From Candidatus Sysuiplasma jiujiangense (GTDB lineage: Archaea; Thermoplasmatota; Thermoplasmata; Sysuiplasmatales; Sysuiplasmataceae): 64,000 nt of DNA. Both the position numbers and the translations under genes were made by a program. Positions 30,987-47,602 of the stretch are shown here, in pieces. Position 1 is the stretch's first letter; every line of letters begins with the position of its first letter. The notes beneath the pieces are model-generated. The model had not been told where the DNA came from, ran no database searches, and saw nothing but the letters and a program-made list of their open reading frames with translations. The stretch covers positions 124,001 to 188,000 of the forward strand of contig JAHEAD010000001.1 of the NCBI GenBank assembly GCA_019721075.1, read 5' to 3'.

Positions 30987-32144
30987 TCAGATGTTAATGA
31001 CATCGCCCTTCCTCAGCACTTCAGCAACTTCCGGTCTGAGAATTTCAGACGGAAGCGGTTTCCCCTCTGAAAGTAGTTTTCTTATCCTTGTTTGACTCGT
31101 GTTCTCGTGAAATTCATCTCCATGAGGGCATACTTTTCTTGAAGCCATTCCATTGCAGACTTTGCAGTAGAATGTTTCCTCATACTTGAGCGGCACAATA
31201 CCAACGTCGAAATTGTCGAATATTCTATGCCCGGCGTAAGGGTCATAATAGCTGCCCACACCGGCCTGATCCCTGCCTACAATATAATGGGAACACCCAA
31301 AATTTCTTCTCACGATAGCATAGAAAAGAACCGCTTTTGGTCCTGCATACCGCATTGATATCGAAAGTGAAGCGAGCAGCACCCTGTCGCTCCGATAATA
31401 GTGAGAGACGAATACTTCATATGCCTCCATTATGACTTCTGGCCTGTAATCACCCTTCTTGAGCTTTCCTATTACCGGCTGTATGAAAAGTGCATCTATA
31501 TCATCCCTTTCAAGTGTTGCCCTCTGAATATATTCATGAGCGGTATGCGGCGGGTTCCTTGCCTGGTAACCAGCCACATTCCTCCAGCCATTCTTCTGAA
31601 AGAGCTCCCGGGTCTCAAGCGGCGTGTATTCAAATTTAGTATGCCGAGTCATTCTGATAAGCTGAACTTTTCCTGAGATGGCGATTTCACCCATCTGTGA
31701 CAGATCAGAAACGTTCGGATGAGCTTTGTCGGTCGTTCCATATATCTTCTTTGCAATCTCCTCCCGCGATATTGTGAATTTCTCCCCAACCCTGATAATA
31801 GCAAATGGAATTCCGGACGTATCCAGGATGGACAGCATATCCGATTCGCCCGCTTCTTTCAGGACAGCTTCATTGTCCTTTCCTGCGGGCGCCAGAAATA
31901 TGGGCATTGTCCAGGGCATTCCGTTCGAAAGCATGCTTCTGTCCAAGACGTTTTTGAAATCTTCCCTCCCCATAAAGCCTTCCAGGGGACTATAGGCTCC
32001 TGTACATATTTTTTCAGCATCATATATCTGGTCTATCAACGGTTTTATCGCCGGGATCTCGGATGCTTCCTCTCTCCGCCTAAGTAATTCGTTTTCGCCG
32101 GGAATGCCGTTGACAAGTTTTCCACCATAAGGGGACGGTATCAT
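30987..32144 (-). CDS. sat: Sulfate adenylyltransferase (ATP sulfurylase)
   Basis: PYGGKLV, GAYSPLEGFM, WTMPI, QARNPPHTAHEY, MRYAGP, RRNFGCSHYIVGRDQAGVG.YY, RPEVAEVL. Confidence 0.95.
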   Translation of the reverse strand: MIPSPYGGKLVNGIPGENELLRRREEASEIPAIKPLIDQIYDAEKICTGAYSPLEGFMGREDFKNVLDRSMLSNGMPWTMPIFLAPAGKDNEAVLKEAGESDMLSILDTSGIPFAIIRVGEKFTISREEIAKKIYGTTDKAHPNVSDLSQMGEIAISGKVQLIRMTRHTKFEYTPLETRELFQKNGWRNVAGYQARNPPHTAHEYIQRATLERDDIDALFIQPVIGKLKKGDYRPEVIMEAYEVFVSHYYRSDRVLLASLSISMRYAGPKAVLFYAIVRRNFGCSHYIVGRDQAGVGSYYDPYAGHRIFDNFDVGIVPLKYEETFYCKVCNGMASRKVCPHGDEFHENTSQTRIRKLLSEGKPLPSEILRPEVAEVLRKGDVINI

Positions 32145-32158
32145 TCAGCATCATCCCG

Positions 32159-34015
32159 TCAGGGCACAATGTGATGCACCGGTTTTGCAGACATCTCCCA
32201 CTGACGTGTCAATGGGTCATAGTGTGAATCAACGAAGACATGCCAGTTCTCATCGTCCACGTGCGGATAGTCTGCCCGGTAGTAATAGCCCGGCCATCTC
32301 GTTTCCTTTCTGTGAAGTGTGTGTCTTATCACCGCCTCAGCAACCCAGATTCTGTGGCTCAGCTCCCACGTTCTCTGCAGCTGGTGAAGATCCTCCGCTC
32401 CAATGCTCTTCATGTCCTCCTTAAGCATGAGAAGCAGGTTTAATCCCTTGTTAAGGAGTTTCTCATTTGTCGAGTAGTATGATCCAACACCCCCGCAGTA
32501 TTCGTCCATTATCTTCTCGAGTCGTTGAAGACCCTGCTTGGGTGTGATGAAGAAGGGGGAAACGCTTCCCTTCACAATTACATGCTTCCCCACTTCATAA
32601 TTTTCCAGTGGCTTGTACAACTCCTCCCTCAAAGCTTCTATCTGAGATAAATCGATTTGCGGCTTGTAATCAGCATGATCTCTCAGAAACCTTACTGCGG
32701 CCTTCGCTGCAAGACGACCTTCGGTGAAAGAGCCAGATGAGAACTTGTGGGCGCTGCCGCCGACAGTATCACCTGCTCCGAAGAGGCCCTCAACGGTCGT
32801 CATCCTGTTGTATCCCCAGTTATAATCCGATGGAGCCATGTCCTCCGGCCCGCTCACCCAGGCGCCTGCACAGACAGCATGCGATCCCATTACATACGGT
32901 TCAGACATGGTGAGTTCTGACGGATCCACCTTCGGGTCTATATTCTGAGAAGCCCACATTACAGCCTGGCCTATTGTCATGTCCAGAAAATCCTCCCAGC
33001 CAAGCTCTTCCTTTTCGCGCGTGTCGAGAGAGCGTTCAGTGTGTATGTAGATTGGACCCTTTCCTGCCTTTATCTCTTCAAGCATCAGGTGATTCCTCAG
33101 GCACGTCGGCATTGGTTTTGCATCTGCATACTTGGTTCCAACATATGTCCTCAGATTATCGATGTGCGCCTTCTCATACTCCTCACCATATGCATTTGTC
33201 GCGACTGATTTGAGCATGAGAAACCATGCCCCGACCGGACCATAACCGTCCTTGAAACGTGTGACCACAATTCTGTTTTCCATCTGTATCATGTCGGCCC
33301 CGACCTGCATCAGTAGGGCATATGCAGATCCATTGTTCCAGGGTGGATACCAAGTTCTTCCCGCTCCCTCTCCCACAGATCGCGGTCTGTATATGTGTGA
33401 GGCGCCTGCAGCACAGACTATGACAGCTTTCGCCCTGAATACGTAGAATGTGCCTTCCCTGACATCCAGACCCACCGCGCCGGCTATACGCCTGGGATTC
33501 CGCATATCTGTAAGCAGATGTGTGATCATTACCCTGTTGTACACTTCATCTACCGATTTTTGAGCTGCTTCTGCAATTATTGGCTTATATGATTCGCCAT
33601 GAATCATGATTTGCCACCTTCCTTCCCTCTGGTAGTGACCATTCTCCCTGTTGTACATCATGGGAAGGCCCCACTCCTCAAACATATGGACAGTAGCATC
33701 GACGTGCCTCGCTATATCGTACAGCAGATCCTCCCTCACGAGTCCCATCAGATCGCCTCTTGCATACCTGACAAAATCTTCAGGCATGTTTTCATTCCAT
33801 CTCATTCCCATATAGCAGTTAATAGCCGATAATCCGTGTGCCACTGCTCCACTTCTCTCAATATTTGCCTTTTCGACGATAACAATGCGAAGATCCCTAC
33901 CCCAGTATCCGGCCTCGTAGGCTGCCCCGCATCCTGCAAATCCTCCTCCCACTATCAATACGTCACAGTCAACGCGCTTTACAGATTTTGTCTTTCCAAT
34001 TGACAGAGATATCAT
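32159..34015 (-). CDS. aprA: Adenylylsulfate (APS) reductase alpha subunit
   Basis: GGGFAGCGAAYEA, ERSGAVA.GLSAINCY, WQIMIHGESYKP, RFKDGYGPVGAWF, PTCLRNH, GYNRMTTV.GLF, HKFSSGS. Confidence 0.97.
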   Translation of the reverse strand: MISLSIGKTKSVKRVDCDVLIVGGGFAGCGAAYEAGYWGRDLRIVIVEKANIERSGAVAHGLSAINCYMGMRWNENMPEDFVRYARGDLMGLVREDLLYDIARHVDATVHMFEEWGLPMMYNRENGHYQREGRWQIMIHGESYKPIIAEAAQKSVDEVYNRVMITHLLTDMRNPRRIAGAVGLDVREGTFYVFRAKAVIVCAAGASHIYRPRSVGEGAGRTWYPPWNNGSAYALLMQVGADMIQMENRIVVTRFKDGYGPVGAWFLMLKSVATNAYGEEYEKAHIDNLRTYVGTKYADAKPMPTCLRNHLMLEEIKAGKGPIYIHTERSLDTREKEELGWEDFLDMTIGQAVMWASQNIDPKVDPSELTMSEPYVMGSHAVCAGAWVSGPEDMAPSDYNWGYNRMTTVEGLFGAGDTVGGSAHKFSSGSFTEGRLAAKAAVRFLRDHADYKPQIDLSQIEALREELYKPLENYEVGKHVIVKGSVSPFFITPKQGLQRLEKIMDEYCGGVGSYYSTNEKLLNKGLNLLLMLKEDMKSIGAEDLHQLQRTWELSHRIWVAEAVIRHTLHRKETRWPGYYYRADYPHVDDENWHVFVDSHYDPLTRQWEMSAKPVHHIVP

Positions 34016-34024
34016 CTCCCGTTT

Positions 34025-34492
34025 TCAGTTCTTACTTTTACTGCCGTCGTTCACAAATGCATGAAGTTTCGGAAGGCTTTCCACTTTTAGATAATCAGGC
34101 TCATGCGAGAGCAGCGGCGTGTGAATAGAATCTTTCTCGGGAGCAGGGTAGCTCCTTGCAGATTTGATTGATCCCCACTTAGTGGTACGGATAGGAAAAG
34201 TGAATTCCTTTATGCGGCCGTCCCTGTATTTGATCTTCCATGATACCGCTCCCTTTTCAGGTTCGCGAAGTACGGTGACACCGTGCCCGAGCGGGGCAAA
34301 GTCCGCGTATCCCCTGACATCGATGGCATGTTCCGGGCAGTATTTCACACAGGTATAGCATTCCCAACACATGTCGGGTTCCACATTGAAAGCGCGCCTG
34401 TTGATTGGGTCGATGTGCATTATGTCGCTAGGACAGAGCTCGACGCATTTACCGCATCCGTCACACATCGTCATGTAAACAAATGTTGGCAT
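34025..34492 (-). CDS. aprB: APS reductase beta subunit
   Basis: MPTFVYMT.CDGCGKCVELCPSDIMHID...CWECYTCVKYCP..AIDVRGYADFAP, F.FPIRTT.WGSI. Confidence 0.96.
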   Translation of the reverse strand: MPTFVYMTMCDGCGKCVELCPSDIMHIDPINRRAFNVEPDMCWECYTCVKYCPEHAIDVRGYADFAPLGHGVTVLREPEKGAVSWKIKYRDGRIKEFTFPIRTTKWGSIKSARSYPAPEKDSIHTPLLSHEPDYLKVESLPKLHAFVNDGSKSKN

Positions 34493-34508
34493 TCTGATTC
34501 ACGACTCC

Positions 34509-35294
34509 TCAATCTTCTTTTATGAAACTCACTTTAGAAGGCGATGGCAAATGAGAATATCCATCGGCAGAATCAATTTCCCTGTGTATTGCATAAACCG
34601 GTTTGTAGATGATATGAAGGAACTTTGACCATCCCATTGAGAGGAAGGGAAAAGCAGTGACAGGCAGATAAAATATAAGCGCTATTTCTGTCGCCACAAG
34701 CGAACCGCTAAGATCGGCAAATTCCAGTATGAATTGGAAAACCACGGCAAGCATGATTGAAAAAAGGAACATGTCAGCACGAATAGAGCGGAAAATGGAG
34801 TCCTTCTCTGATCTGACATTCACGCGCATAAAAAGCATCAGAATTCCGCCAAGGAGCAGCATAGTGTTACCTGTGTTTGTAGCAATTTCAAGCGGATTCG
34901 AGATTGGAGACGCATTGAGTGTCGGGTAAACGAACGCCTTGGAAAGCATCGATAGAGCCGATACAATGAATCCCCAGAACAGAAGCAGATGAGCGATACG
35001 TCTCGGTATGTCAACTCCTTTTTCATTGCATGAAGCAATTTCACCGGAAAAGGCGATATTTCTGAGAAGGACCCGCATTATTACCGAGGAGTGGGATACA
35101 TGCTTACCTCCAGAAACCCTTCCAAAACTCCTTTTCCAGGCCCTCTCCTGTTCATATGCCCTGATTTTTTTCCGCACGAGGGCGTCATACATAACACCGA
35201 GGATGGCTCCTAAAACCAGAATCAGTACAAACAACCGAAAGTAGTCCGATGGGAAAAACACATCTATGTTTACAGCGGCCATTCTATGAACCAT
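34509..35294 (-). CDS. aprM: AprM-like membrane anchor of APS reductase
   Basis: About five TM helices, GE...C...RRIAHLL.FWGF, R.NVRSE, WSKFLH..YKP. Directly upstream of aprBA. Confidence 0.82.
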   Translation of the reverse strand: MVHRMAAVNIDVFFPSDYFRLFVLILVLGAILGVMYDALVRKKIRAYEQERAWKRSFGRVSGGKHVSHSSVIMRVLLRNIAFSGEIASCNEKGVDIPRRIAHLLLFWGFIVSALSMLSKAFVYPTLNASPISNPLEIATNTGNTMLLLGGILMLFMRVNVRSEKDSIFRSIRADMFLFSIMLAVVFQFILEFADLSGSLVATEIALIFYLPVTAFPFLSMGWSKFLHIIYKPVYAIHREIDSADGYSHLPSPSKVSFIKED

Positions 35295-35347
35295 TCAGGG
35301 CAATGAATTTTCTTTACTTATACTTATTCGATAACGACTGATTTCGA

Positions 35348-35360
35348 CTGACATTGTCAG
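35348..35360. promoter_or_regulatory. Palindromic motif CTGACATTGTCAG (candidate operator, site 1)
   Basis: Perfect 6-1-6 palindrome between aprM and the Lrp gene. Confidence 0.6.
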
Positions 35361-35524
35361 GCACATATATTTTCGTTGCTGACCGGGTAAATAATGAACC
35401 GCTTCCGTATTGAAAACACTGCATCGGGAAGCGGCTTTACTGAAAGAATATTTATGAATCTGCGGGAAGGGAGAAAGATTAATACGCATGTAAACGTAAA
35501 GCGAGAATTGAAGGTCTGCCCGGA

Positions 35525-36031
35525 ATGAACAGCAGGAAAAAAGACGAGAAAGATGCGAACGGTGGCCTAGGACTTGATTTGCTGGATGTCGGAATTATCA
35601 AGGAATTGCAGAAGAATTCCCGAACATCCTACAGGCAGATTGCCAGAAATTTCGGCGTCAGTGTGACGACAGTGAGCGAAAGAGTAAACAGGATGGTTAA
35701 GGAGGGCCTGATAAGAAGCTTTACCGTCATTGTTAACCCTGAGAAATCTGGACCAATTTTCTGCGCAGCACTTTACATCAAAGCAAGTAACGGATGTGAC
35801 CCGAGAGAGGTTGGCAGGAATGTTTCAAAGATAAAGGGGATTTGTTACACTTATCAGGCGCTCGGATTGTACGACATAATAGCTCTTGGCAGCGCCATCA
35901 GCAAGAAGGATTTTTCCACAATGATTAGGGATGTCACATCAGTTGATGGAATAAAAGAAGTCATACCGTCGATGGTCATAGACACAATAAAGGAAGAGCC
36001 CCGTCACCCGATAAGCATACCCGGAAAATAG
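35525..36031 (+). CDS. Lrp/AsnC family transcriptional regulator
   Basis: LDLLDVGIIKELQKNSRTSYRQIA...GVSVTTVSERVNRM..EGLI, GLYDII. Confidence 0.9.
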   Translation: MNSRKKDEKDANGGLGLDLLDVGIIKELQKNSRTSYRQIARNFGVSVTTVSERVNRMVKEGLIRSFTVIVNPEKSGPIFCAALYIKASNGCDPREVGRNVSKIKGICYTYQALGLYDIIALGSAISKKDFSTMIRDVTSVDGIKEVIPSMVIDTIKEEPRHPISIPGK

Positions 36032-36060
36032 TAGCGACGTTGAATTCTTGCATGTACTTT

Positions 36061-36558
36061 TCAGAATGTCGTGTTCTTTGAAGCTCTCGCAATTATCCTT
36101 TTTGACATTTCGGCCATCTCTTCACACATGCGTCTGTACGCCTGATCGTCTACCGTTGTCATCTCACCCATGTCACTGCCGATCAACGCATACTCGGAAA
36201 AGGTGTAAATGGTCGAGTCCGGATAAAGGAACAAAAGGAAACCTTTTACTGCCATGCTCGTTGCAAGAAGCAACTCGAATTGCCGCACGATGCTGTCTGA
36301 AAGTTTTCGGCTCCTGAACTCATGAATTTCTTCCTTGTTGAAGGCTCTATCCGCAAGAAAAGAGGAAGCCCGCAAGCTCATGGGTTGTCCCTCGACTGCG
36401 GAGAGACCTGCTGATGACACGATCATATCCCTTTCACCTGCTTCCTTCTTAAGCAAATATTCCATGATCGGGCTCGCATCAGCATTTGCACTGCCTACAA
36501 CCAGAATTCGTTTAACAGGTTTGCCAAAAACAAGCCTTCTGATTATGTTTTCAGACAA
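36061..36558 (-). CDS. LMW protein-tyrosine-phosphatase/ArsC-fold protein lacking the catalytic CX5R motif
   Basis: RILVVGSANADASPIMEYLL, VSSAG, FRSRKLS, FELLLA. The P-loop Cys and Arg are absent. Confidence 0.75.
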   Translation of the reverse strand: MSENIIRRLVFGKPVKRILVVGSANADASPIMEYLLKKEAGERDMIVSSAGLSAVEGQPMSLRASSFLADRAFNKEEIHEFRSRKLSDSIVRQFELLLATSMAVKGFLLFLYPDSTIYTFSEYALIGSDMGEMTTVDDQAYRRMCEEMAEMSKRIIARASKNTTF

Positions 36559-36560
36559 GT

Positions 36561-36845
36561 TTATTCCTTGACTGGTATTTCGAAATCGATTCTTTCAATT
36601 ATGTCTTCCTTTCGGATTGGCAAAATGTTCCTATAGGCAGGAAACATGTCTGAGCTGAAGCGTTCCGCTATAGCACCGTTATCTTCCTTGGCCGCCTGTT
36701 CACCTATGAGTAGAACATCATCATCTTCCCTGACGACTACTCCACCTGCCCTGAAAACAGCACGGTAAACCGTTGCATCCGCTCCTCTTCCGCCATGAGG
36801 AGAAAAAGGTTTAGGATCCGAATACTTCACGTAAACGATTTTCAC
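36561..36845 (-). CDS. Hypothetical protein
   Basis: 94-aa ORF packed between dsrE and the PTP-like gene (2-bp gap downstream). Confidence 0.65.
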   Translation of the reverse strand: MKIVYVKYSDPKPFSPHGGRGADATVYRAVFRAGGVVVREDDDVLLIGEQAAKEDNGAIAERFSSDMFPAYRNILPIRKEDIIERIDFEIPVKE

Positions 36846-36875
36846 CGGAAATGCACCGAGATCAATACCTGCATT

Positions 36876-37316
36876 TCAGATGAAGAGAGTTATTGCAGAA
36901 GGATCGGAAGCCCATTGAAGAAATGTGGCCGCTCCGACAACGTCTGCACCAGGCAGTGTGAGATTCTCCTTCGTTGTTCCAAAAAGCTTCATGGTTGGCG
37001 AACATGCATTTATGTGAACACCTGATTCGGCCGCCATCTGAAGCATCTGTTGCACGGATGGCATTCCGCCTTTCGATATCAGTCCCTTCAGCTGTTCAGC
37101 ATTTAGTCCGAGGTCCTTTGAAGGTTCAAGTGCATCCGCCTGACCCTTGGTCAGAAGTTTCATTCCTCCAAAGGTGAAGTACATGTATACTTCCATTCCC
37201 TGGGCCGCCGCAGTCGTGGCCAGTATCAAGGCCGGATATGCGGCATCCATGGTGCCTTTGCTCACAACTAGTACTAGCTTGTTCTTTGATTCAGATTTCT
37301 CTACCGCGTTTTGCAT
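36876..37316 (-). CDS. dsrE: DsrE-family sulfurtransferase (DsrE2/peroxiredoxin-like)
   Basis: SKGTMDAAYPALILATTAAA.G.EV.MYFTFGG, GVHINACSPTM, VVGAATFL..A. Confidence 0.85.
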   Translation of the reverse strand: MQNAVEKSESKNKLVLVVSKGTMDAAYPALILATTAAAQGMEVYMYFTFGGMKLLTKGQADALEPSKDLGLNAEQLKGLISKGGMPSVQQMLQMAAESGVHINACSPTMKLFGTTKENLTLPGADVVGAATFLQWASDPSAITLFI

Positions 37317-37375
37317 TTACTGTTGTCCCCGATACCTTATTCCTTACACGTTATAAGTAAATTACCAGCCACTTA

Positions 37376-37388
37376 CAGACATTGTCAA
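37376..37388. promoter_or_regulatory. CAGACATTGTCAA (candidate operator, site 2)
   Basis: Near-identical copy of site 1 in the divergent dsrE/tusA gap. Confidence 0.55.
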
Positions 37389-37449
37389 GAAGATCCGCTA
37401 AATTAGGGGTAGAACTAAATATATATCAATACGACATGATTACACCATT

Positions 37450-37683
37450 ATGTCATCTGAAGCGAAAGTTTTTGATTTCAGGGGACTGCAGTGCCCCCTC
37501 CCCGTGTTTGAGACAAGCAAGGCTATCAAACAGATAAATGTCGGAGAAACGATTCTTGTTATGGCAAACGACCCGGCCGCAAAACCTGATCTGCAGGCAT
37601 GGTCGAAGAGAACGGGACATGAGATCGTGAATCTTGAGGAAAAAGAGGATTTTGTGAGCTTTACAATTAAGAGATCGCACTGA
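37450..37683 (+). CDS. tusA: TusA sulfur carrier
   Basis: DFRGLQCPLP, GE...VMANDPAA..DL.AW...TGHE. Confidence 0.93.
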   Translation: MSSEAKVFDFRGLQCPLPVFETSKAIKQINVGETILVMANDPAAKPDLQAWSKRTGHEIVNLEEKEDFVSFTIKRSH

Positions 37684-37874
37684 CATTTGAACAGTTTCTC
37701 TATCAGAAAACAAACTGGATGGATCTGAATGGAGGGGGAGAGGTATCGATATCTAGTACATTTACCCCTCCTCGTTGTGTAATGACAGACATTTTTTGCA
37801 TCGGCTCAGTTCGTTGTACTATTGTCCTACCAAAAGTATAATTAATAAAGTGTCCATTAGAATGTCTTAAATGA

Positions 37875-37887
37875 TTAACATTGTCAG
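37875..37887. promoter_or_regulatory. TTAACATTGTCAG (candidate operator, site 3)
   Basis: Third copy, just upstream of a TTTTAAA box and hdrC1. Confidence 0.5.
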
Positions 37888-37924: not shown

Positions 37925-38704
37925 ATGTCAATCCTCAAAAATTTGCCAAAGAGAGAGGATTCGCAATCGCCATCTATGATTATTTCAGGAGCAAGGGGAC
38001 ATGGCAAACAGTCTGATGAAACAGCCAAAAGGATTTTCGCTGAAATGCGCAGTGATTTTAGATACAAAGATTTTGTTTTAGGCTGCCTTAACTGCGGTGA
38101 ATGCACTACAGGCTGTCCGGCAGCCAGATTTTACGATTTCAGCCCAAGAGAAATGCTTCAGGTGGCGATGTCTGAAGATCCCGACGTTCTGCTTGACGCC
38201 ATGCAGGAAAAAATATGGGCCTGCTGCCAGTGTTATACATGCAACATGAGATGCAGATTCGGAAATGATATAGCGGGAATAATAAGCGTAATGAGAGAAC
38301 TTGCAGTGAAAAATGGCCTTGAAAGCGCAAAGGAAGTCCTGAAACCCGCAAGCAGGAGTCTCCTCAAAGTTATGACACATGGAACCCAAGTGTCGCCGGA
38401 CATGATACAACCAGATTTCTTTATTGACTGGGATCCAAAGGCTGTATCGAAATCTGGTGATCTTCAACTGCTCCGAAAAGCGATACCGATAGATGTTCTT
38501 CAGGTAACTGACTCGTCGTGGGAGGTTTCCATGCAAACTGCACTCGAGCTTGCCCAGATTTATGAAGAGTCTGGAGTGCTCGATATGCTCAGGTCCCTTG
38601 ATCCCGACCTTGTGGAAATGATTGTTGATATAATTTCAGACTGGAAAGATGAATTCGAAGATATGAAAGAAAAATTCGGCATGAAGAGCGATGATGGAAA
38701 ATGA
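37925..38704 (+). CDS. hdrC1: Sulfur-oxidizing heterodisulfide reductase-like subunit C1
   Basis: CLNCGECTTGCP, FYDFSPRE, IWACCQCYTCNMRC; cluster order. Confidence 0.9.
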   Translation: MSILKNLPKREDSQSPSMIISGARGHGKQSDETAKRIFAEMRSDFRYKDFVLGCLNCGECTTGCPAARFYDFSPREMLQVAMSEDPDVLLDAMQEKIWACCQCYTCNMRCRFGNDIAGIISVMRELAVKNGLESAKEVLKPASRSLLKVMTHGTQVSPDMIQPDFFIDWDPKAVSKSGDLQLLRKAIPIDVLQVTDSSWEVSMQTALELAQIYEESGVLDMLRSLDPDLVEMIVDIISDWKDEFEDMKEKFGMKSDDGK

Positions 38705-39990
38705 AGATGCTAAGTGCGGATCAGATAAGAGAAGTGGTTAAGGCCAGAACTGAAAACAGAGCTGTTTCTGATAAGAAGGTAGCCGACGTAAGGGAAGAAA
38801 TGTGGAACCTGCACGATAAAGGGGAGCTTATTGTAATACCAATCGAAAGTAAAAATAAGCCTATCCCGGTTCAGACATTATTTGGCTGGGAGAAAAAGAT
38901 TCCGACTGATTACCTCTGGCACCATAAATCATGCGGGCAATGCGGCAACATACCTGGTTATCCCGCATCCCTCCTTTGGTTCATGAATGAATTTGGAACA
39001 CACTATCTGAATGAACCGCATCAGACATCTTGTACTGCATGGAACTATCACGGCACAGGTACATCGAACCCGGTAGCTCTGGCAGCTGTCGCTGTGAGAA
39101 ACTGGTACAGGGCATATGAAACTGGTACATTCCCTCTCATACACTGCGGTACAAGCTACGGTGATTACAAGGAAATGAGGAAACTCCTCGTTGAGAACAA
39201 GGAAACAAGGGAAAAGGTAAGAGACATAATGCATCACATGGGAAAGGAACTCGTGATACCCGAAGAAATAGTGCATTACAGTGAGTGGGTGCATGTTATG
39301 CGGGACAGGATGGCATCCATGAAAAAGTATAATCTGTCAGACATAATTGCAACCGTCCATGAACCCTGCCATTATTACAAAATGGTTCCAGAGGATGCCA
39401 TTTACGATTTCGGTGTCAACGGGGGACAGCGGCCTGCACCTCCAACGGCGCTCATGCTTGCACTCGGCGCAAAAGTTGCGGATTACAGCACATGGTATGA
39501 CTGCTGCGGTTTCGGATTCCGGCATATTCTGACAGAGAGGGAGTTTACAAGATCATTTGCCACGCTGCGGAAAATTAAACCGATGGTGGAAGAGGCTCAT
39601 TCTGATGTTGCAATCACCACCGATACCGGCTGCGTGACAACACTGGACAAGAGCCAGTGGATAGGCAAGGTTCATGGAATGGATTTCATGGTGCCGGTAC
39701 TCGCCGACGTCCAGATTGCTGCGCTGGCAGCCGGAGCCCACCCATATAAGATCGTTCAGGTACACTGGCATGCGTCCCCAACCGAGAAGCTGATGGAGAA
39801 AATGGGAATAGACTACACCTCGTACAAAAACGATTTCATGGCTTACCTGGAGCAGATTAAGGGCGGAGGGAAGATCGAGTATCTTTACGAACCTCACAGA
39901 GAAATGGAAAAATATTTCGCAGTCAACAAAGGCCAGGTTCTTCCCGAAGATGTTCCCCGGCCCGAAGAGGCAAAAATCAGACAGGGTTAG
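38701..39990 (+). CDS. hdrB1: sHdr subunit B1
   Basis: HHKSCGQCGNIPGY, QTSCTAWNYHG, HCGTS, CHYYK, DYSTWYDCCGFGFRHI, DTGCVTTLDK. Confidence 0.92.
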   Translation: MKMLSADQIREVVKARTENRAVSDKKVADVREEMWNLHDKGELIVIPIESKNKPIPVQTLFGWEKKIPTDYLWHHKSCGQCGNIPGYPASLLWFMNEFGTHYLNEPHQTSCTAWNYHGTGTSNPVALAAVAVRNWYRAYETGTFPLIHCGTSYGDYKEMRKLLVENKETREKVRDIMHHMGKELVIPEEIVHYSEWVHVMRDRMASMKKYNLSDIIATVHEPCHYYKMVPEDAIYDFGVNGGQRPAPPTALMLALGAKVADYSTWYDCCGFGFRHILTEREFTRSFATLRKIKPMVEEAHSDVAITTDTGCVTTLDKSQWIGKVHGMDFMVPVLADVQIAALAAGAHPYKIVQVHWHASPTEKLMEKMGIDYTSYKNDFMAYLEQIKGGGKIEYLYEPHREMEKYFAVNKGQVLPEDVPRPEEAKIRQG

Positions 39991-39998
39991 GTGATATT

Positions 39999-41081
39999 CT
40001 GACCGCAGCACGCATACTTGTCATAGGAGGAGGACCAGCGGGACTGAGTGCGTCGATGGATCTTTTCGGTGCGGGAGCTGAGGTGGTTCTGGTGGAAAAG
40101 GAATCTTTTCTTGGCGGGACCCCAAAGCGCCTTCACTACAGCCTGATAGCACCGGATCTCAAACCTGTGGAGGAAGTACTCGACCCTTTGATAAAAGAGG
40201 TAAAGTCCTCAGGGATAAGGACGAAACTCGGCACAATTGTTTCATCCATCAGGAATCATGATAAGAGTGTACAGGCAACATTCAAATCAATCTCTGACGG
40301 AAAGGAGGAAAAAGACGCTTTTGACGCGGTCGTGCTGGCCACCGGATTCTCGCACTGGGATCCGCATAAGAAGTACGAATACGGCTACGGCCTCTATCCA
40401 GATGTCATTGACTTCAAGGATTTTGAACAGATGCTTTCGGAGGACCGCCTCATCAGACCATCCAATGGTCAGATGCCTAAACGGATAGGGTGGCTTCTCT
40501 GCGTAGGTTCGCGGGACAGGCAGGTTGGAAAATTCTACTGCTGCAGGCTTGGCTGCGCAGTATCGATAAAACAGGCAATGGAGGTGAAGAAGAAGCATCC
40601 GGAAATTGACACTTACATCTATTACATGGACATTAGGACATATGGCTTTTGGGAAGACCAGCTGTACTGGAAATCCATGGAGGAAATGAATGTCAAATAC
40701 ATACGCGGACGTATAGGGGCCATCAGCAAGGGAGAAGACGGCAGTCTTATTGCAATGGCCGAAGATACAATTCTACAGAGACCCAGTGAAGTTCCGTTCG
40801 ACATGCTTGTGCTTGCCACAGGAATGGAGGCAAGCGAGGGAACTGTCGAAATGGCCAAAATGCTTGGACTGGAAATGGAAGAGCATGGCTTTGTTAGGCC
40901 GCTTCAGGCAGACAGCCTTCCCGTGCATACTACAGTTGAAAACGTGTTTGTAGCCGGCACAGCTACGGGCCCAAAAGCGATACCCGATGCCATAACAGAG
41001 GGCTCGGCAGCCGCGATAAAGGTACTCAATTACGTGAGGAAGAGGTCGATAAAAACAAATGCCAGAGCTTATGCTGAATAG
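39999..41081 (+). CDS. hdrA: sHdr subunit A (FAD-binding); probable CTG start
   Basis: In-frame upstream ILVIGGGPAGLSAS, LGGTP, ATGF.H, YGYG, CVGSRDRQ.G...CC..GC.VSIKQA, YMDIRTYG.WE, GPKAIPDAI.EG. Confidence 0.92.
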   Translation: MTAARILVIGGGPAGLSASMDLFGAGAEVVLVEKESFLGGTPKRLHYSLIAPDLKPVEEVLDPLIKEVKSSGIRTKLGTIVSSIRNHDKSVQATFKSISDGKEEKDAFDAVVLATGFSHWDPHKKYEYGYGLYPDVIDFKDFEQMLSEDRLIRPSNGQMPKRIGWLLCVGSRDRQVGKFYCCRLGCAVSIKQAMEVKKKHPEIDTYIYYMDIRTYGFWEDQLYWKSMEEMNVKYIRGRIGAISKGEDGSLIAMAEDTILQRPSEVPFDMLVLATGMEASEGTVEMAKMLGLEMEEHGFVRPLQADSLPVHTTVENVFVAGTATGPKAIPDAITEGSAAAIKVLNYVRKRSIKTNARAYAE

Positions 41082-41769
41082 TTACCGCATGCGTGAAATT
41101 GCGGATGCGACAATAGGACATGAATGGGAGGCGGAGCTCAGAGCTTACGTTGAACTTCTCAGGCGTAAATCCGAAATTGTCACTTCAATGACACGGGAAA
41201 GAGACAGGAGTGAAGAATTCAGGAAAGACTTCATAAGAATGTGTTTCACATCGAGGAGGTATGCTGACTCCATTCTCTCACACAACACGCCTGGTGGGAT
41301 TGATATGGCCATTGAGTCCCTCGCGTCGGCAGACGATGAACCGGAGGCATGCATTGCCATATTTGCCGGCCTGCATGGTGCACCTGCTGAAGTGATAAGA
41401 GATCTTGCCTTTGAAATGATTCACTTTTCATTTCCGGAAAAATACGGACTGGCGACAAGATGGGTCTGGAATCCTGCACGAGGCACTGGTGCTCTTAGGG
41501 AGGCAATAATGGCCGATAGGATGGAAATGAATTTCACCCAGATACAGAAAGTAATGAGAAACATATACTCGTCTCTCATTGTTCATGGATACAGATTTCA
41601 TGATTTTTTTCCACTTGACCTCATAAGCGCTCTCCATTATTCACAGGATGTCATAGGAGCAAAGGACAACTCAATGAACGCTGGTGGAATGGAGGCTCTT
41701 TTCCCGAACCATGGAGTGATTTCGATAATGATACTCGGACTGAAGGAGATACGTTATGCCAATCCATGA
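41059..41769 (+). CDS. Conserved sHdr-cluster protein (Hyp/sHdrH)
   Basis: Position between hdrA and hdrC2; E.IHF..PEKY.L.TRWVWNP..GTGAL. Confidence 0.82.
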   Translation: MPELMLNSYRMREIADATIGHEWEAELRAYVELLRRKSEIVTSMTRERDRSEEFRKDFIRMCFTSRRYADSILSHNTPGGIDMAIESLASADDEPEACIAIFAGLHGAPAEVIRDLAFEMIHFSFPEKYGLATRWVWNPARGTGALREAIMADRMEMNFTQIQKVMRNIYSSLIVHGYRFHDFFPLDLISALHYSQDVIGAKDNSMNAGGMEALFPNHGVISIMILGLKEIRYANP

Positions 41770-42463
41770 GAAGCACTTGATTGCAAAAGAAAAAATACTG
41801 CAGAAGGACAGGGCAGAACTTGAAGGGAGGGATGTTTCAGGACAGTGGAACATTTTCATACAGCAGAGAATCCTGTCACAATATGAGCCGTCCATTGCAG
41901 AGGATATTGCATCGACGCATGAAGGGAGAACCATCAACAGATGCTGGCAATGCGGTACTTGCACATCCGGTTGCTGTATGCATACTGATTTCGGCCTTCG
42001 GGAGTTCAATCCCCGATACTTCATTTATCTTGCAAGGATTGGGGATGAGGAAGAACTGAAGAAACAGAAGGATGTTATCTGGCGCTGCCTATCATGCAAC
42101 AAGTGCGTTGAAAGATGCCCGAAGGATGTGAGGGTTGAAGAGGTCATACATGCCATTGACGGGTACATGAGGAAGAAGGGATGGATGACTGATACTCCCG
42201 CAAGCAGGTGGGACAGGGAGTATGTCAACAATGTCCTGGAGACTGGAATACTTGATGAAATAATGCTCCTCAGGAACTATATCAAGAAGGAGGAACTGAA
42301 GGAATTTGACTCCGGCTACATGATGAGGATGGGGATGCGCCTTGCCAGAACTGGTAGACTGAGAACCGGTCCCGTCAGGCACAGGACAAAAGGCTGGAAG
42401 AAGATCAAAAAAGTCGCTGAAGAAATACTGGAAAAGGATGGATATGAACTACCAAAAAGGTGA
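41756..42463 (+). CDS. hdrC2: sHdr subunit C2
   Basis: MPIHEK, DVSG.WN, RCWQCGTCTSGC, FNPRY, IWRCLSCNKCVERCPKDV. Confidence 0.92.
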   Translation: MPIHEKHLIAKEKILQKDRAELEGRDVSGQWNIFIQQRILSQYEPSIAEDIASTHEGRTINRCWQCGTCTSGCCMHTDFGLREFNPRYFIYLARIGDEEELKKQKDVIWRCLSCNKCVERCPKDVRVEEVIHAIDGYMRKKGWMTDTPASRWDREYVNNVLETGILDEIMLLRNYIKKEELKEFDSGYMMRMGMRLARTGRLRTGPVRHRTKGWKKIKKVAEEILEKDGYELPKR

Positions 42464-43355
42464 TATTGCTTTTTACCCTGGCTGTTCGCTAGACGGACTC
42501 GGAAAAGCTTACAGGAAGAGCTCGGAGCTTGTAACAAAGGATCTGGGCATTCAGATGGAAGAGATTGTGAACTATAACTGCTGTGGAGCGGCGGAAGTCA
42601 AGACCGTGAGCTACGATCTGTCCGTTTTTCTCCCCGGAAGAAATCTCGCACTTGCAAAAGAAATGGGTTCAAAGACAGTCGTTGCGCCTTGCAATGGATG
42701 TGTCTTTTCTCTGGGAAGAGCAAATAAAGCGATAGCTGAAGACACCGCGACCAAAGAAAGGGTTAACGAATATCTTGAAAGGGCCGGTGCACCATCATAT
42801 AATGGTGAAGTGGAGGTAAAGCACATAATAGAAGTCATATACCAGCAGGCCGGACTCGATACAATCCGCAACATGGTCAGGAGACCACTGAAAGGCATAA
42901 AAGTTGCCTGTTACTACGGTTGCCTGTACACCAGGCCAAAGATTTACACAGGAGCTGGTTCCTGGGATAAAGACAACCCGGAACACCCCCACTTCATGGA
43001 CGACATCATGGAAGCAATAGGGGCAGAAGTGGTCGACTACCCTCTGAAAACGGTATGCTGCGGTGGCGGCCATGCAATAGCCGATCGTGAGGTATCTGTT
43101 GGCTTCAGCGCTTCAATACTTAATGAAGCGGCAAGAGCAGGGGCTGATTTTGTAGTAACAATGTGTCCTCTGGGGCAGATGAATATCGAGGCAAACATAC
43201 CAATGATTGTAAAGCAATATGGTCAGCAGATAGTGAGGCCGGTCGTTTATTTCACTCAGCTAATGGCGCTTGCATTCGGCCACAGCCGGAGAGATGTGCG
43301 ACTTGGAGACAATTTTTCCGATGGTGGAAAGATTTTACGCCAGAAGGGATTCTAG
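42438..43355 (+). CDS. hdrB2: sHdr subunit B2
   Basis: AFYPGCSL, YNCCGA, RNLA, APCNGC, YYGCLYTRP, CCGG.H, MCPLG; CCG domains. Confidence 0.92.
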   Translation: MDMNYQKGDIAFYPGCSLDGLGKAYRKSSELVTKDLGIQMEEIVNYNCCGAAEVKTVSYDLSVFLPGRNLALAKEMGSKTVVAPCNGCVFSLGRANKAIAEDTATKERVNEYLERAGAPSYNGEVEVKHIIEVIYQQAGLDTIRNMVRRPLKGIKVACYYGCLYTRPKIYTGAGSWDKDNPEHPHFMDDIMEAIGAEVVDYPLKTVCCGGGHAIADREVSVGFSASILNEAARAGADFVVTMCPLGQMNIEANIPMIVKQYGQQIVRPVVYFTQLMALAFGHSRRDVRLGDNFSDGGKILRQKGF

Positions 43356-43370
43356 TCAAGGGAGGTAGGA

Positions 43371-43823
43371 ATGATGACGTTCATAAATGGATGTGAACTG
43401 CCCGACAACCTGCTCTACTTTGTGGAAGGAAACCAGATGTCGTGGATAAGACTGGAAGAAGATGAGGCTGTCATAGGACTGACGGATCCCGCCCAGACAA
43501 GGGCCGGAAAGATAGTTGTTATCAGGGTGAAGGGGGAGGGCACAAGCAGACCAAAGGGAAAGCCACTGGCAACAATTGAAAGCGGAAAGTGGGCAGGTGC
43601 TGTTCTGTCACCGTTAACAGGCGTAGTCGTGAAACCCAATGAGGAACTCACCGCCCATCCTGAACTGATTAACAACGATCCTTACGGTAAAGGATGGATT
43701 GTCAGGGTGAAAATGATCAATCGGGAGGAAAGCAGTTCTCTCCTCCGGGGTGAACAGGCCATGGAAAAATACAGAGAACTGATAGGCAGGGACAACATAC
43801 GCTGCATCAGATGCCAGCAGTGA
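43371..43823 (+). CDS. lbpA: Lipoate-binding protein (GcvH-like)
   Basis: N-terminal GCELP..L.Y, lipoyl motif IESGKWAG, N.DPYG.GWI, C-terminal RCIRC. Follows hdrB2. Confidence 0.88.
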   Translation: MMTFINGCELPDNLLYFVEGNQMSWIRLEEDEAVIGLTDPAQTRAGKIVVIRVKGEGTSRPKGKPLATIESGKWAGAVLSPLTGVVVKPNEELTAHPELINNDPYGKGWIVRVKMINREESSSLLRGEQAMEKYRELIGRDNIRCIRCQQ

Positions 43824-43824
43824 G

Positions 43825-44211
43825 GTGGCAAATATGGTTGAAGTTGAAGGAAAGAAGTTGCTTATTGTGATGACAACAGGCCCGGAAGATCCTGAGAAGA
43901 CATATGCCCCATTCTATACAGCAGCACTCTCTGCTGCGATGGAGGTGGATACATCAATGTACTTCCTCATGCACGCGCCAAAGCTTCTGAAAAATGGCTC
44001 CGCGGAACAGGTCAGACTGAAGAAAGGCGGAACACTGAAGCAGTTCATTAACATGGCGCTGGAGGGAGGAGTGAAATTCTATGCCTGCGAGGAAAGCTTG
44101 CGCGATCTTTGCGACATAGATCCGAAGGATGTAATAGAAGGGGTTAAAGTTGTCGGCTCCTCCACACTGGCTGATCTTGCACTTGACTCAGATTCGGTTC
44201 TAAGTTTTTGA
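43825..44211 (+). CDS. dsrE: DsrE-family protein
   Basis: TTGPEDPEK.YAPF..A, GVKFYACEESL, VVG. Confidence 0.85.
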   Translation: MANMVEVEGKKLLIVMTTGPEDPEKTYAPFYTAALSAAMEVDTSMYFLMHAPKLLKNGSAEQVRLKKGGTLKQFINMALEGGVKFYACEESLRDLCDIDPKDVIEGVKVVGSSTLADLALDSDSVLSF

Positions 44212-44212
44212 G

Positions 44213-45340
44213 GTGAAGATGACGGACCTTGAGATAATAAATCTCGGTCCCGTAGACGGTTATGTAATGACAAACGTGTTTGTTGCTCTTTCGTACGCAG
44301 TCAGCGAGGAAAGGCGCAATGATGTGCTTGTCTTATGCCACCCTGAAAAGCCATTTGCGAACGTAGGGTTCCATCAGGAGACGCTCAGGGAGATTGACAT
44401 TGACTATTGCACAAGACATTCCATACCCGTTGTCAGAAGGGTTATCGGAGGGGGGGCGATAGCAGACGGACCATGGGAGGAAGATTACTTCCTAATAAGC
44501 AGGATCGGTTCTAAGTCGACACGGGGAACGTTAAAGGAATATTACGGCAGGATGCTTGAACCAGTTTCATCCGCATTGCACAGACTGGGGCTGAACGCAA
44601 CCAGACAGGGGCTGAACGACCTTGCAGTGGATGGCAGAAAGATTAGCGCAAACGGGGCTGTGGACATAGAAGGGGCAAGGGTTCTTACAGGCGATATTCT
44701 TCTAGACCTGAACATCGACATCATGGCAGGCATACTGAAGGTCCCGGAAGAAAAATTCAGGGATAAAATAGCAAAAACGATGATGGAGCATCTAACGGGA
44801 ATCAGACAGACTCTTGGACGGGAAATCGAACGGGGAGAAATTGACAAACTGCTTGCAGAGGAGTTTGGAAGACTCTACGACGGCGTGAAAAGTTCTGATA
44901 TAACAGAACATGAGAAAAAGCGTCTTGACCTGTTGGTAGAGGAAAGGAAAAGACAGGAGTGGATTTTCTCTCGGGACAGTGATAGGAGCGAGCTATTTGC
45001 AGATCGCAGGATAGTCAAGATCAATGAGGGTACTTTTCTTTGCAAGGCAGACTACAAAGCACAGAAGCTGATACGAGTTACAATGCTTGTTGAGTCAGGG
45101 AGGATTAAAAATATAGCCATTTCGGGGGACTTTTTTACCGTGCCCGTAAGCTGGAAGCTGGAAAGACTTGAAAGACGCCTTGAGGGAACTCCTCTGAATC
45201 ATGAAGATATCAAATCCATTGTTGACACTTTGATTTCTCAGGATGGCGTAACAGTGCTCGGCGCGGAGCCAGAAGATTTCGCATCTGCAATAATGGATGC
45301 CGCCAGGCATCCGGAAATTTCGAATGAAAACAGAGGCTGA
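44213..45340 (+). CDS. lplA: Lipoate--protein ligase, catalytic and C-terminal domains fused
   Basis: VGFHQ...EID...C, VVRRVIGGGA, ND..V.GRKIS.NG, KVPEEKFRDK, C-terminal ISGDFF. Confidence 0.85.
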   Translation: MKMTDLEIINLGPVDGYVMTNVFVALSYAVSEERRNDVLVLCHPEKPFANVGFHQETLREIDIDYCTRHSIPVVRRVIGGGAIADGPWEEDYFLISRIGSKSTRGTLKEYYGRMLEPVSSALHRLGLNATRQGLNDLAVDGRKISANGAVDIEGARVLTGDILLDLNIDIMAGILKVPEEKFRDKIAKTMMEHLTGIRQTLGREIERGEIDKLLAEEFGRLYDGVKSSDITEHEKKRLDLLVEERKRQEWIFSRDSDRSELFADRRIVKINEGTFLCKADYKAQKLIRVTMLVESGRIKNIAISGDFFTVPVSWKLERLERRLEGTPLNHEDIKSIVDTLISQDGVTVLGAEPEDFASAIMDAARHPEISNENRG

Positions 45341-46427
45341 AAGTTTGAAAAGCGAACTGAGGGAAATTCTGTCGACAGTTCCGCATCCTGAAAGGCGTTC
45401 CTCCCTGATAGAGCTGGGTATGATATCTTCGATTAATGCAGAAGGAAAAAGAGTCAGGGTCGTTGCCTCCATACCTGAAGGATACCAACTGGCAGACATC
45501 ATAAAATCAGACATAGAAACGGTGTTGAAGGATGCTGGATACGACTGCGCAGTTGAATTCACAATCAAAGGGAAGACCGTGCCGGATGAAAGGAAGTCAA
45601 GGAAACTTCCCATAATTGTCACAGGAACCAGAGAAAGAACAGGCATAGACGCACTTCCACGGAACGACATAGGAAATATCATCGCCGTGGCATCCGGCAA
45701 GGGAGGAGTGGGAAAGAGCTTTATTACGACCGCGATAGCGACGCATCTTACCTCACTGGGATACAGGACAGGCATACTGGACGCAGACATCACTGGTCCG
45801 TGTATTTCTCGAATGCTTGGACTGAGGGACCTTCCTGAACTCGGGGAAAATAACAGAATGAAGCCGCTGGTGTCAAGAATGGGCATCAGGGTGATGTCCA
45901 TTGACCTGATAATGGACAAATTCAAAACACCACTGGTGTGGAGAGGACCTCTGATAAACAGCGCGATCAGAGGGTTGTTTTCGGAAACTGAATGGGGTGA
46001 TTTACACTACCTGCTGGTAGATCTGCCTCCCGGCACATCAGATGCACCGCTGACTGTATTCCAGTCGTTGACTCCGGATGGCGTGCTTTTCGTCACCAGT
46101 CCGATGGAAGTTGCGAGATCCGTAGTTGCCCGTTCAATAGCCATGGCGAGTGAGATGCATGTACCTGTTATAGGAGTGGTTGAGAATATGGCATTTCTCA
46201 GGCTTCCAGACGGTTCGCGCATAAATGTATTTGGAAGAGAGGAAGGCAAAAAAGTTGCTGAGGAGTTTGGTGTTCCATACATTGGATCTGTTCAGCTCGA
46301 TCCTGCCGTTAGCGCGCTGTCAGATCGTGGGGAGATTGAACTTTACAGCAACAGTCAATTCTTCAGGATAATCAGGAATTTGAGATTCAGCCTTCTGCGC
46401 ATTTCACCGGACACAAGAAGGGGATGA
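45324..46427 (+). CDS. Mrp/ApbC/NBP35-family ATPase with N-terminal DUF59-like domain
   Basis: HPE..SSLIELGMI, VASGKGGVGKS, LDADITGP, VWRGP, WG.L.YL.VDLPPGTSD, GVVENM. Confidence 0.88.
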   Translation: MKTEAESLKSELREILSTVPHPERRSSLIELGMISSINAEGKRVRVVASIPEGYQLADIIKSDIETVLKDAGYDCAVEFTIKGKTVPDERKSRKLPIIVTGTRERTGIDALPRNDIGNIIAVASGKGGVGKSFITTAIATHLTSLGYRTGILDADITGPCISRMLGLRDLPELGENNRMKPLVSRMGIRVMSIDLIMDKFKTPLVWRGPLINSAIRGLFSETEWGDLHYLLVDLPPGTSDAPLTVFQSLTPDGVLFVTSPMEVARSVVARSIAMASEMHVPVIGVVENMAFLRLPDGSRINVFGREEGKKVAEEFGVPYIGSVQLDPAVSALSDRGEIELYSNSQFFRIIRNLRFSLLRISPDTRRG

Positions 46428-46430
46428 CTA

Positions 46431-46634
46431 ATGCCCAGAATACGCGTTATATCCAGAATCGGGAATCCATTCTTTTCCGGGGTAACAGGAAAGACCGCAA
46501 AGACTGTGCCGCCGGAACATCTTGAGATTCTAAACAGTCTCTTCTTTGAAGGTGAAGTGGATAAAGGAGGCACTGTGGAAATCGACGGGCGGAGATATGT
46601 GTGCACCTCGTACGGATGGGCATGTGAGGAATAA
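46431..46634 (+). CDS. Hypothetical 67-aa protein with two C-terminal cysteines
   Basis: Tightly packed (3-bp and 1-bp gaps); ends YVCTSYGWACEE. Confidence 0.65.
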   Translation: MPRIRVISRIGNPFFSGVTGKTAKTVPPEHLEILNSLFFEGEVDKGGTVEIDGRRYVCTSYGWACEE

Positions 46635-46635
46635 T

Positions 46636-46986
46636 ATGGAGTCACAGTTCCTTATAATTCTTTTTTCATCTCCAGTGCAGCACAGGGAAGCTGAATCGGC
46701 AAGGGACAGGGCACAGTCACTCATGGCGGCAGGCAAAAAGGTGTCAATATTCCTTCTGGGAGATGGTGTTTACAATGCTTCTGAAGAGCTAATTCAGCCT
46801 GGCAATCCGGGTGTTGTTTCATCTTTTGCTCAGATGGAAGAGGCAGACATTGTTTGCTGTTCGACATGTTTGGCTATGAGGGGAGTGAACAGGCTCATTG
46901 GAACGGCGAGGAAAGGGAGCCTGGAAGATCTTGTGGATAAAATGGAAAAGGCGGATATCATACTGAATTACACGGCGGAGGAATGA
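46636..46986 (+). CDS. DsrE/TusD-like protein
   Basis: SSP, G.KVSIFLLGDGVY, CCSTCLAMRG, GSLEDL. Start re-called at ATG 46636. Confidence 0.8.
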   Translation: MESQFLIILFSSPVQHREAESARDRAQSLMAAGKKVSIFLLGDGVYNASEELIQPGNPGVVSSFAQMEEADIVCCSTCLAMRGVNRLIGTARKGSLEDLVDKMEKADIILNYTAEE

Positions 46987-47318
46987 TGAGAGTTACTGTT
47001 TTGCTGACACGACCTCCCCTATCCACCGCACACGTGACGGAGGCATTGCGCGTCTCCTTAATGCTCGCTGCTCTAGGGCACGACGTATCTCTGGTTCTAA
47101 TTGACGATGGAGTATTCATGCTTCTGGAAAATATGGGAGCCTCATTCGGGCTCGAAACACTGAAAAGGGCGGATGGTGCTGACGGCCTTCATCTGTGTGT
47201 TCACGGTGATTCCGTCAGAAAATTACTGCCTGATATGAAAATACCAGCAACTTACAGCATGCTTGAGACCAGAGACATTGCATCAATGATTCTCTCAGAG
47301 AAAGTGCTGGTGTTCTGA
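46983..47318 (+). CDS. DsrF/TusC-like protein
   Basis: LTRPP.......EALR, VSLVLIDDGVF, V..DS, ends KVLVF. Confidence 0.75.
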   Translation: MMRVTVLLTRPPLSTAHVTEALRVSLMLAALGHDVSLVLIDDGVFMLLENMGASFGLETLKRADGADGLHLCVHGDSVRKLLPDMKIPATYSMLETRDIASMILSEKVLVF

Positions 47319-47602
47319 TGCAGGTGCTAATCCACATGCACAGAAGAATTCAAATGAAATCCGGAATTATAGAGGTGGTATCCGAAATCTGCAGGAGAAC
47401 GGAAACAACAATTGTCCTCGGGGGCGCTGCAGTATTTTCCGCCGGTAATTTGCAGCATACGCTCAATTCCTGTCGGGCACAGTATAGATTGTGTGTGGAG
47501 AATGTGGCCGAAAGCCATCCGCTCCCAGCTGATGTTGAGCGTTTGAGCACTGATGAAGTGACAAAGCTTATTGCTGTGACAGAGCGGGTAATACTGTTCT
47601 GA
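47318..47602 (+). CDS. DsrH/TusB-like protein (divergent)
   Basis: Size and position after E and F; IVLGGAAVF, ends EVTKLIA.TERVILF. Confidence 0.55.
   Translation: MQVLIHMHRRIQMKSGIIEVVSEICRRTETTIVLGGAAVFSAGNLQHTLNSCRAQYRLCVENVAESHPLPADVERLSTDEVTKLIAVTERVILF

Follow-up and report, generated by a model that had tools for sequence, protein, structure and literature searches.

A palindromic element shared by promoters of a sulfur gene island in Candidatus Sysuiplasma jiujiangense, and an embedded Lrp-family protein as its candidate binder

Archaeal regulators of the Lrp family read DNA as dimers, and their operators are described as imperfect inverted repeats of 13–17 bp (PMC2995911) or, in the recognition code set out in PMC2715240, as 13-bp sites of the form abcde-WWW-edcba with an AAT/ATT centre. 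Both for Lrp proteins and for SurR of the Thermococcales, upstream sites are reported to serve activation and downstream sites repression (PMC2995911, PMC12162507, PMC3597687). SurR itself governs sulfur reduction, as described in PMC12162507, and the regulators described for the sHdr pathway in PMC12423496 are bacterial repressors of the ArsR type. Here, we describe three related palindromes in a sulfur gene island of the archaeon Candidatus Sysuiplasma jiujiangense, within a stretch of 64,000 nucleotides (the window; contig JAHEAD010000001.1, positions 124,001–188,000), where genes for Apr-Sat, DsrE, TusA and sHdr proteins flank a gene for an Lrp/AsnC-family protein (the island Lrp; Table 1). 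We favour the reading, to which we assign a probability of about 0.6, that the palindromes are operators of the island Lrp, which would act in two ways according to their position and would sense sulfur through its cysteines. Among open-licence papers, supplements excluded, we found no published description of the motif, of a regulator for the sHdr or Apr-Sat genes of archaea, of an Lrp that senses sulfane sulfur or of an Lrp that controls archaeal sulfur oxidation. The locus names a protein with two cysteines as candidate sensors and adds 16 operator sequences and a testable rule of position, all for uncultured Thermoplasmata; how archaea regulate the oxidation of sulfur can thereby be tested with a single recombinant protein and short DNA probes.

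A preliminary description of the window had listed the three palindromes, and their sequences and coordinates are exact as given there; the related cores that it noted in coding DNA near 13405 and 16360 are likewise present. Its consensus, two six-base arms about a single base, captured the palindrome, but the division into arms and centre is better drawn as 5-3-5, namely, YTGAC-AWT-GTCAR. All three copies of the exact 9-mer ACATTGTCA in the window do lie, as had been stated for some 600 bp of intergenic DNA, in three gaps totalling 604 nt. This compares with an expectation of 0.50 copies, and three or more were found in 2 of 100 shuffles; taken alone, the enrichment is modest, because the word was picked after the fact. 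The motif is also conserved in relatives, a point that the preliminary description had left to be checked: it occupies 12 of 12 orthologous positions in three genomes of the same genus as the genome holding the window (G001–G003 and G000, respectively) and one of a second genus (G004), all of family f1. These five genomes underlie the counts out of five given below for the three sites and their promoters, and the site set of the family comprises 16 sites, four of them contributed by G004. The flanks have diverged around the conserved motif, the mean pairwise identity being 0.91, 0.81 and 0.96 for the 11-bp cores of sites 1–3 and 0.22–0.57 for the 10-nt flanks. A matrix built from the 13 sites of the relatives, with G000 left out, gives the three G000 sites 21.0, 17.9 and 16.2 bits, and they rank first to third among 355,148 intergenic positions, ahead of the next at 15.4 bits. 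Judged by their conservation, the palindromes are real, selected elements restricted to the island, and they are almost certainly operators for a protein.

The motif is local to the island and not genome-wide. With up to one mismatch, the loose consensus TGACANTGTCA is not enriched across G000, 26 of 177 matches being intergenic in a genome whose intergenic share, from a simple custom gene caller, is 15.5% of bases; at least 16 bits is also reached, with the full matrix, at five positions in G000 coding DNA. A genome-wide regulon was rejected, the next intergenic matches in G000 (15.4 bits and lower) lying beside unrelated genes at the background rate, and no conserved regulon member outside the island was found in family f1. 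Equally, the pattern DACAWTGTCAR was discarded as a regulon marker for its lack of selectivity (16–29 strand matches per genome, with 23 even in G005, which is without the regulator). The inner 11 bp of matS, the site of MatP in enterobacteria (consensus GTGACATTGTCAC; PMC8669397), equal those of site 1, whereas the outer bases differ, and MatP (PF06303) had no match in G000 (97% complete), the Escherichia coli control being positive; the likeness is a coincidence, and the island sites are three promoter elements rather than terminus markers.

The island Lrp combines an N-terminal AsnC-type helix–turn–helix (HTH) with a C-terminal RAM domain, which places it in the Lrp/AsnC family, and its best structural match is the FL11–DNA complex (2e1c; 28% identity). 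In an alignment to FL11, its helix residues Tyr36, Ser46-Val-Thr-Thr49 and Ser51 correspond to Tyr24, Ser34, Val35, Thr36, Thr37 and Ser39 of FL11. From these residues, the code of PMC2715240 predicts T or C at position a, T at b (through Thr36) and A at d (through a hydrophobic residue 35, the published Ile being extended here to Val). The 32 half-sites of family f1 have a pyrimidine at a in 28 cases, T at b in 26 and A at d in all 32; for position c, facing Ser39, the code as described there holds no rule, and C at e occurs there only for Ptr1. All 16 sites have an AAT/ATT centre, and they take both the form of an imperfect inverted repeat of 13–17 bp and that of abcde-WWW-edcba. In fold, site length, 5-WWW-5 layout and centre, as well as in having sites upstream of the B recognition element (BRE) or downstream of the TATA box, the system thus resembles the archaeal feast/famine regulators FL11, Ss-LrpB, FL10, TvFL3, Ptr1/Ptr2 and LysM, as described in PMC2715240, PMC2995911 and PMC3597687, although the half-site YTGAC is not among the nine in Table 4 of PMC2715240. 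It differs in its putative targets, which are dissimilatory sulfur genes instead of amino-acid genes, and in two invariant cysteines of the effector domain.

These cysteines, Cys80 and Cys107, lie 27 residues apart in the RAM domain and are present in 22 of 22 island Lrp proteins from two families, f1 and f10 (see below), and in none of 27 paralogs. The G-x-Y-D/N loop of the RAM domain, which bears on the binding of amino-acid effectors, is present in the f1 island proteins and replaced in those of f10. A profile search of 1.84 billion representatives returned six clusters above 175 bits; read by eye and unaligned, five of these (P0016 included) have both cysteines and one lacks the first, whereas among the more distant matches, P0018–P0023, it is the second that is clearly kept. 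One partial, unrelated match was all that a scan of metagenomes for Lrp loci produced. SurR, as described in PMC12162507, is likewise archaeal and sulfur-linked, with a cysteine pair and with activation from upstream and repression from downstream, but it has an ArsR-like fold, carries its CxxC in the DNA-binding domain and controls sulfur reduction versus hydrogen production. The island Lrp has no such ArsR-like CxxC-in-HTH arrangement, and the motif does differ from the SurR site, as the preliminary description had said, since none of the island sites fits GTT-N3-AAC. The sHdrR and SoxR proteins of Hyphomicrobium denitrificans are likewise encoded beside shdr genes, have two conserved cysteines and repress sulfur-oxidation operons; they are, however, bacterial and of ArsR-type fold, which the island Lrp is not, and the cysteine positions are not homologous (as far as described in PMC12423496).

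The island Lrp occurs only alongside the sHdr genes. Among 401 evenly sampled genomes of the class, an Lrp ortholog (E ≤ 1e-36) was found in 16 and sHdrB1 (E ≤ 1e-80) in 19, and all 16 are among the 19; the 16 carriers form two clades, and are not 16 independent cases. The three sHdrB1 genomes without an Lrp ortholog belong to g3, a sister genus within family f1 of the two genera with the motif (g1 and g2). In g3, the island is kept, albeit rearranged, the Lrp ortholog is found in none of five genomes, and the motif is absent from 16 promoter regions, where the best match scores 4.1 bits compared with at least 15.3 for the 16 f1 sites. (Across family f1, the sHdrC1 ortholog was recovered from 8 of 9 genomes other than G000.) The island Lrp is favoured as the binder, and on these sequence comparisons is probably the protein that occupies all three sites, because the sites have the archaeal Lrp form, motif and Lrp are jointly missing in g3, and the ortholog occurs only together with sHdr. 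Of the earlier proposal that one dimeric factor, perhaps the embedded Lrp, co-regulates the island, the shared operator is thus well supported and the island Lrp appears the best candidate for the factor, for a regulon that is local.

The placement of the sites relative to the promoters, where start sites throughout are those implied by conserved TATA-like boxes, differs between the sHdr operon and the rest. A spacer of 26 nt, diverged in sequence, separates the 11-bp core of site 1 from the aprM TATA box downstream of it in all five genomes; site 2 lies upstream of both the dsrE and the tusA boxes, and the nearer of the two is in each genome 18–20 nt away. Site 3, in contrast, lies on the downstream side: in every one of the five, it starts 39 nt (37 nt in G004) past the first T of the conserved box AAAA[G/C]TATA. 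A genome-wide fit places the BRE/TATA 16-mer mostly 37–41 nt before the ATG, so that the first T of TATA falls ~30 nt before a leaderless start, and site 3 would then span about +8 to +21 of the sHdr transcript. Its broken left arm is kept in all five genomes, whereas the A/T run that follows it is unconserved. The BRE/TATA matrix, derived by expectation–maximization, is weak (matches of ~3–10 bits); its best plus-strand match lies upstream of site 3 in all five genomes, and the G000 aprM and dsrE boxes fall outside its top two. Of the clusters, spaced by two or three helical turns, that characterize archaeal Lrp operators, the only sign here is the half-site TGTCCA near site 3 (four of five genomes), none being seen at sites 1 and 2. 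The preliminary description had placed each palindrome upstream of TATA-like boxes and had named activation as a possibility; this fits sites 1 and 2, and hence for apr, dsrE and tusA, but the sHdrC1 site lies downstream of its BRE/TATA element, a repressor position. In G004, the fourth motif copy, 15 nt before an inserted SQR-like/DUF1641 gene pair, is to judge from its place downstream of TATA also at a repressor position. The inserted pair, an SQR-like flavoprotein gene and its DUF1641 partner (L034:7317-9516), thus has an operator copy of its own between TATA and ATG within the G004 island.

On the favoured reading, all three sites would be bound by a dimer of the island Lrp. Its place at sHdrC1, just downstream of the putative start, would let it obstruct RNA polymerase, as LrpA does, and, if the site is bound, repression is the likely outcome. 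At aprM, dsrE and tusA, it may assist TBP or TFB in the manner of Ptr2 and LysM, although we would give activation of apr-sat, dsrE and tusA from these upstream sites only even odds. By analogy with SoxR and sHdrR, Cys80 and Cys107 could sense reactive sulfur species, a proposal that we make tentatively; on the analogy of SoxR, sHdrR and SurR, it would be the thiol form that binds DNA, and its modification by sulfur would release the sHdr promoter. Simple release would then turn sHdr on and apr down, which is a physiological puzzle. Modified Lrp might change its oligomeric state and keep activating; the protein might act as a governor, limiting sulfite production while raising sulfite removal; or there might be repression at every site. 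A bolder and rather doubtful scenario is that an Lrp subfamily switched through its cysteines, and descended from a glnA regulator that senses amino acids, serves as such a governor of an archaeal dissimilatory sulfur-oxidation regulon. From a single type of operator, it would throttle sHdr and the SQR-like gene and boost Apr-Sat, and this opposition would matter so much that g3, having lost the Lrp, rebuilt it in mirrored form with another element.

In the g3 loci (L035, L036, L037, L038 and L279), an unrelated, non-palindromic element, TTATTATTTCCAAA, abuts the sHdrC1 BRE on its upstream side at four of four loci, one with a single change; inverted, it lies over the aprM start, on the downstream side of the TATA box, at five of five, and a third copy occurs at dsrE in G005 only. 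This layout is the mirror image of that of the Lrp sites, and suggests opposite control of the sHdr and apr units. In g3, the spot that the Lrp gene takes in other genera is regularly filled by a gene, divergent from the apr unit, for a 400-residue TnpB/Cas12f-like protein with a Pfam TNB domain (L036:9368-10591, with orthologs in G005, G006, G007 and G009; 66–94% identity). Its third RuvC aspartate appears to be lost, and the gene is possibly domesticated. A guide-RNA link between this gene and the g3 element was considered and is unsupported, G007 being without the downstream copy.

A second family, f10, with loci of 67–71% G+C, has an island Lrp of its own in or near its island. It is 27–34% identical to the f1 protein, and shares the S-V-T-T-x-S helix, both cysteines and a C-terminal KExPxH. 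A sister palindrome, TGGAC-N4-GTCCA, lies 18–20 nt (27 nt in one case) downstream of TATA at 13 of 14 f10 sHdrC1 promoters; the genome without it, G445, is also without the Lrp ortholog. A variant abuts the putative BRE at the nine aprB promoters viewed, most of which were selected by the pattern itself. Among 65 bacterial sHdrC1 genes, none was found to have either palindrome upstream. The half-site of the f10 palindrome resembles that of Tar (TK0271), TGGACA-N8-TGTCCA, which is also an upstream activator; Tar differs in that its spacer is much longer, it is not an Lrp and it serves aromatic amino-acid operons, as described in PMC6737238. A second locus in G442, comprising dsrE2, tusA, mvhD and hdrA (L174:755-3013), has a perfect sister palindrome before its tusA-mvhD-hdrA unit. 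Directly before the f10 island Lrp, in 12 of 12 loci shown (L087-L097, G379, G430, G442), stands a small gene whose zinc-ribbon-like product carries two CxxC motifs, a possible redox partner.

Several observations weigh against the favoured reading. The gain and loss events are few (one loss in g3 and one in G445), and any factor restricted to g1 and g2 would fit equally. No autoregulatory site was found at a fixed distance from the lrp gene, the distance from site 1 to it being variable, and site 1 is ~18 bp from the BRE compared with 11 bp for LysM (as given in PMC3597687). Simple co-induction would not predict that sHdr and apr are controlled in opposite directions. In f10, the difficulties are of another kind: the tree joins the f1 and f10 island Lrp groups at 80/58 only, with a long-branch warning; two aprB promoters with another gene order (L088 and L092) have no site; and the palindrome, with its 4-bp centre, falls outside the abcde-WWW-edcba form and has G at position b despite the same helix, which is a misfit to the code. 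A 4-residue linker insertion was dropped as the cause of this spacer, since the paralog lacks the insertion and nevertheless has this spacer. The same palindrome also precedes, by ~85 nt, a paralogous Lrp gene that diverges from glnA (4 of 5 loci that the pattern had not selected, 13 of 14 overall), and in genus g221 a copy lies 155–170 nt upstream of ilvE as well. These loci (L079, L081, L165, L168, L235 and L255-L269) likely mark a nitrogen/amino-acid Lrp regulon with an even-spaced site. The f10 pattern therefore supports an Lrp-type reading of GAC...GTC sites, whereas its sharing with the glnA paralog weakens the attribution there. Two genomes marked as unpublished carry no part of the argument.

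Were the island Lrp instead a pure repressor, an oligomer anchored upstream would wrap or occlude apr, dsrE and tusA until a sulfur signal released all units together. Co-induction of sHdr with apr-sat would presumably be the simpler physiology, the f10 aprB site extends into the first bases of its putative BRE, the spacing of site 2 to either TATA box varies (18–34 nt), and SoxR and sHdrR are described as repressors released by a sulfur bridge (PMC12423496). Nevertheless, we consider it unlikely, given that site 1 keeps exactly 26 nt to TATA, as would be expected for TBP/TFB contact (described in PMC2995911), and that the mirrored layout in g3 suggests opposite control of the two units. It is also unlikely that the sites are bound by a factor encoded elsewhere, such as the glnA-type paralog, with another role for the island Lrp: the 14-bp f10 palindrome does mark the paralog/glnA promoter, and in g221 that of ilvE, and the same helix goes with a different spacer in the two families, but the f1 paralog has a different helix (S-L-N-T) and no such site near its gene at nine of nine loci. 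That paralog occurs in g3, where the motif is absent, no copy of it was found in G004 (80% complete) with its four sites, and G445 has the paralog and its glnA site, yet no sHdr site. Finally, chance matches, RNA hairpins or mobile-element relics are highly improbable: the strong coding matches and the unenriched loose consensus would allow for chance, but the positional conservation amid diverged flanks does not, sites 1 and 2 are upstream of the putative starts and would hence lie outside the transcripts, site 3 keeps its broken arm, and there was no Rfam match.

Table 1. Sites, genes and putative promoter elements of the sulfur island, in window coordinates
Feature	Position	Strand	Remarks
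Site 1, CTGACATTGTCAG	35348-35360	.	Perfect palindrome CTGAC-ATT-GTCAG, aprM/Lrp gap
Site 2, CAGACATTGTCAA	37376-37388	.	CAGAC-ATT-GTCAA, between divergent dsrE and tusA TATA boxes
Site 3, TTAACATTGTCAG	37875-37887	.	TTAAC-ATT-GTCAG, before sHdrC1
sat, aprA, aprB and membrane gene in aprM position	30987..35282	-	aprM start likely 35282
Lrp/AsnC protein, candidate binder	35525..36031	+	Between aprM and dsrE
dsrE, conserved 94-residue open reading frame, low-molecular-weight phosphatase-like gene	36061..37316	-	
tusA sulfur carrier	37450..37683	+	
sHdrC1-B1-A-H-C2-B2, lbpA, dsrE, lipoate ligase, Mrp/NBP35 ATPase, dsrEF(H)-like genes	37925..47602	+	
BRE/TATA-like element of aprM-aprB-aprA-sat, GAATAAG TATAAG	35317..35329	-	Conserved; putative promoter
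dsrE TATA-like box TTATAA	37351..37356	-	Conserved, 20 nt from site 2 core; putative
tusA BRE/TATA-like element	37412..37427	+	First T 30 nt before ATG; putative
sHdr operon BRE/TATA-like element, CCAAAAG TATAATTA	37830..37844	+	Conserved, upstream of site 3; putative
Half-site-like TGTCCA	37851..37856	+	Conserved in 4/5 genomes; 31 bp from matching half of site 3

The island is arranged as listed in Table 1. The membrane gene matches no Pfam family, and we take it to be AprM from its position; the sHdr subunit names and the SQR label are, similarly, our assumption from domains and gene order. The lbpA gene of the sHdr operon encodes a GcvH-like lipoate-binding protein. In G000–G003, no operator copy occurs at another sulfur cluster, which comprises SQR-like, DsrE and DUF1641 genes. 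An assimilatory role for Apr-Sat was dropped, a sulfite/nitrite reductase domain being found in only one of five genomes tested; that gene (L273; G000:C4, ~42700-43900) is in G000, and a weak motif match (13 bits) lies ~1 kb from it. Contigs from a mine-drainage RNA run (X1), which carry neither strand, start nor level information, are at least 99% identical to the island over aprA, dsrE and the sHdr genes. The 94-residue reading frame (36561-36845, minus strand) belongs to no Pfam family, stands beside dsrE/tusA in every mapped island-bearing genome of both families, with 41–68% identity across them, and is a candidate new sulfur-relay protein.

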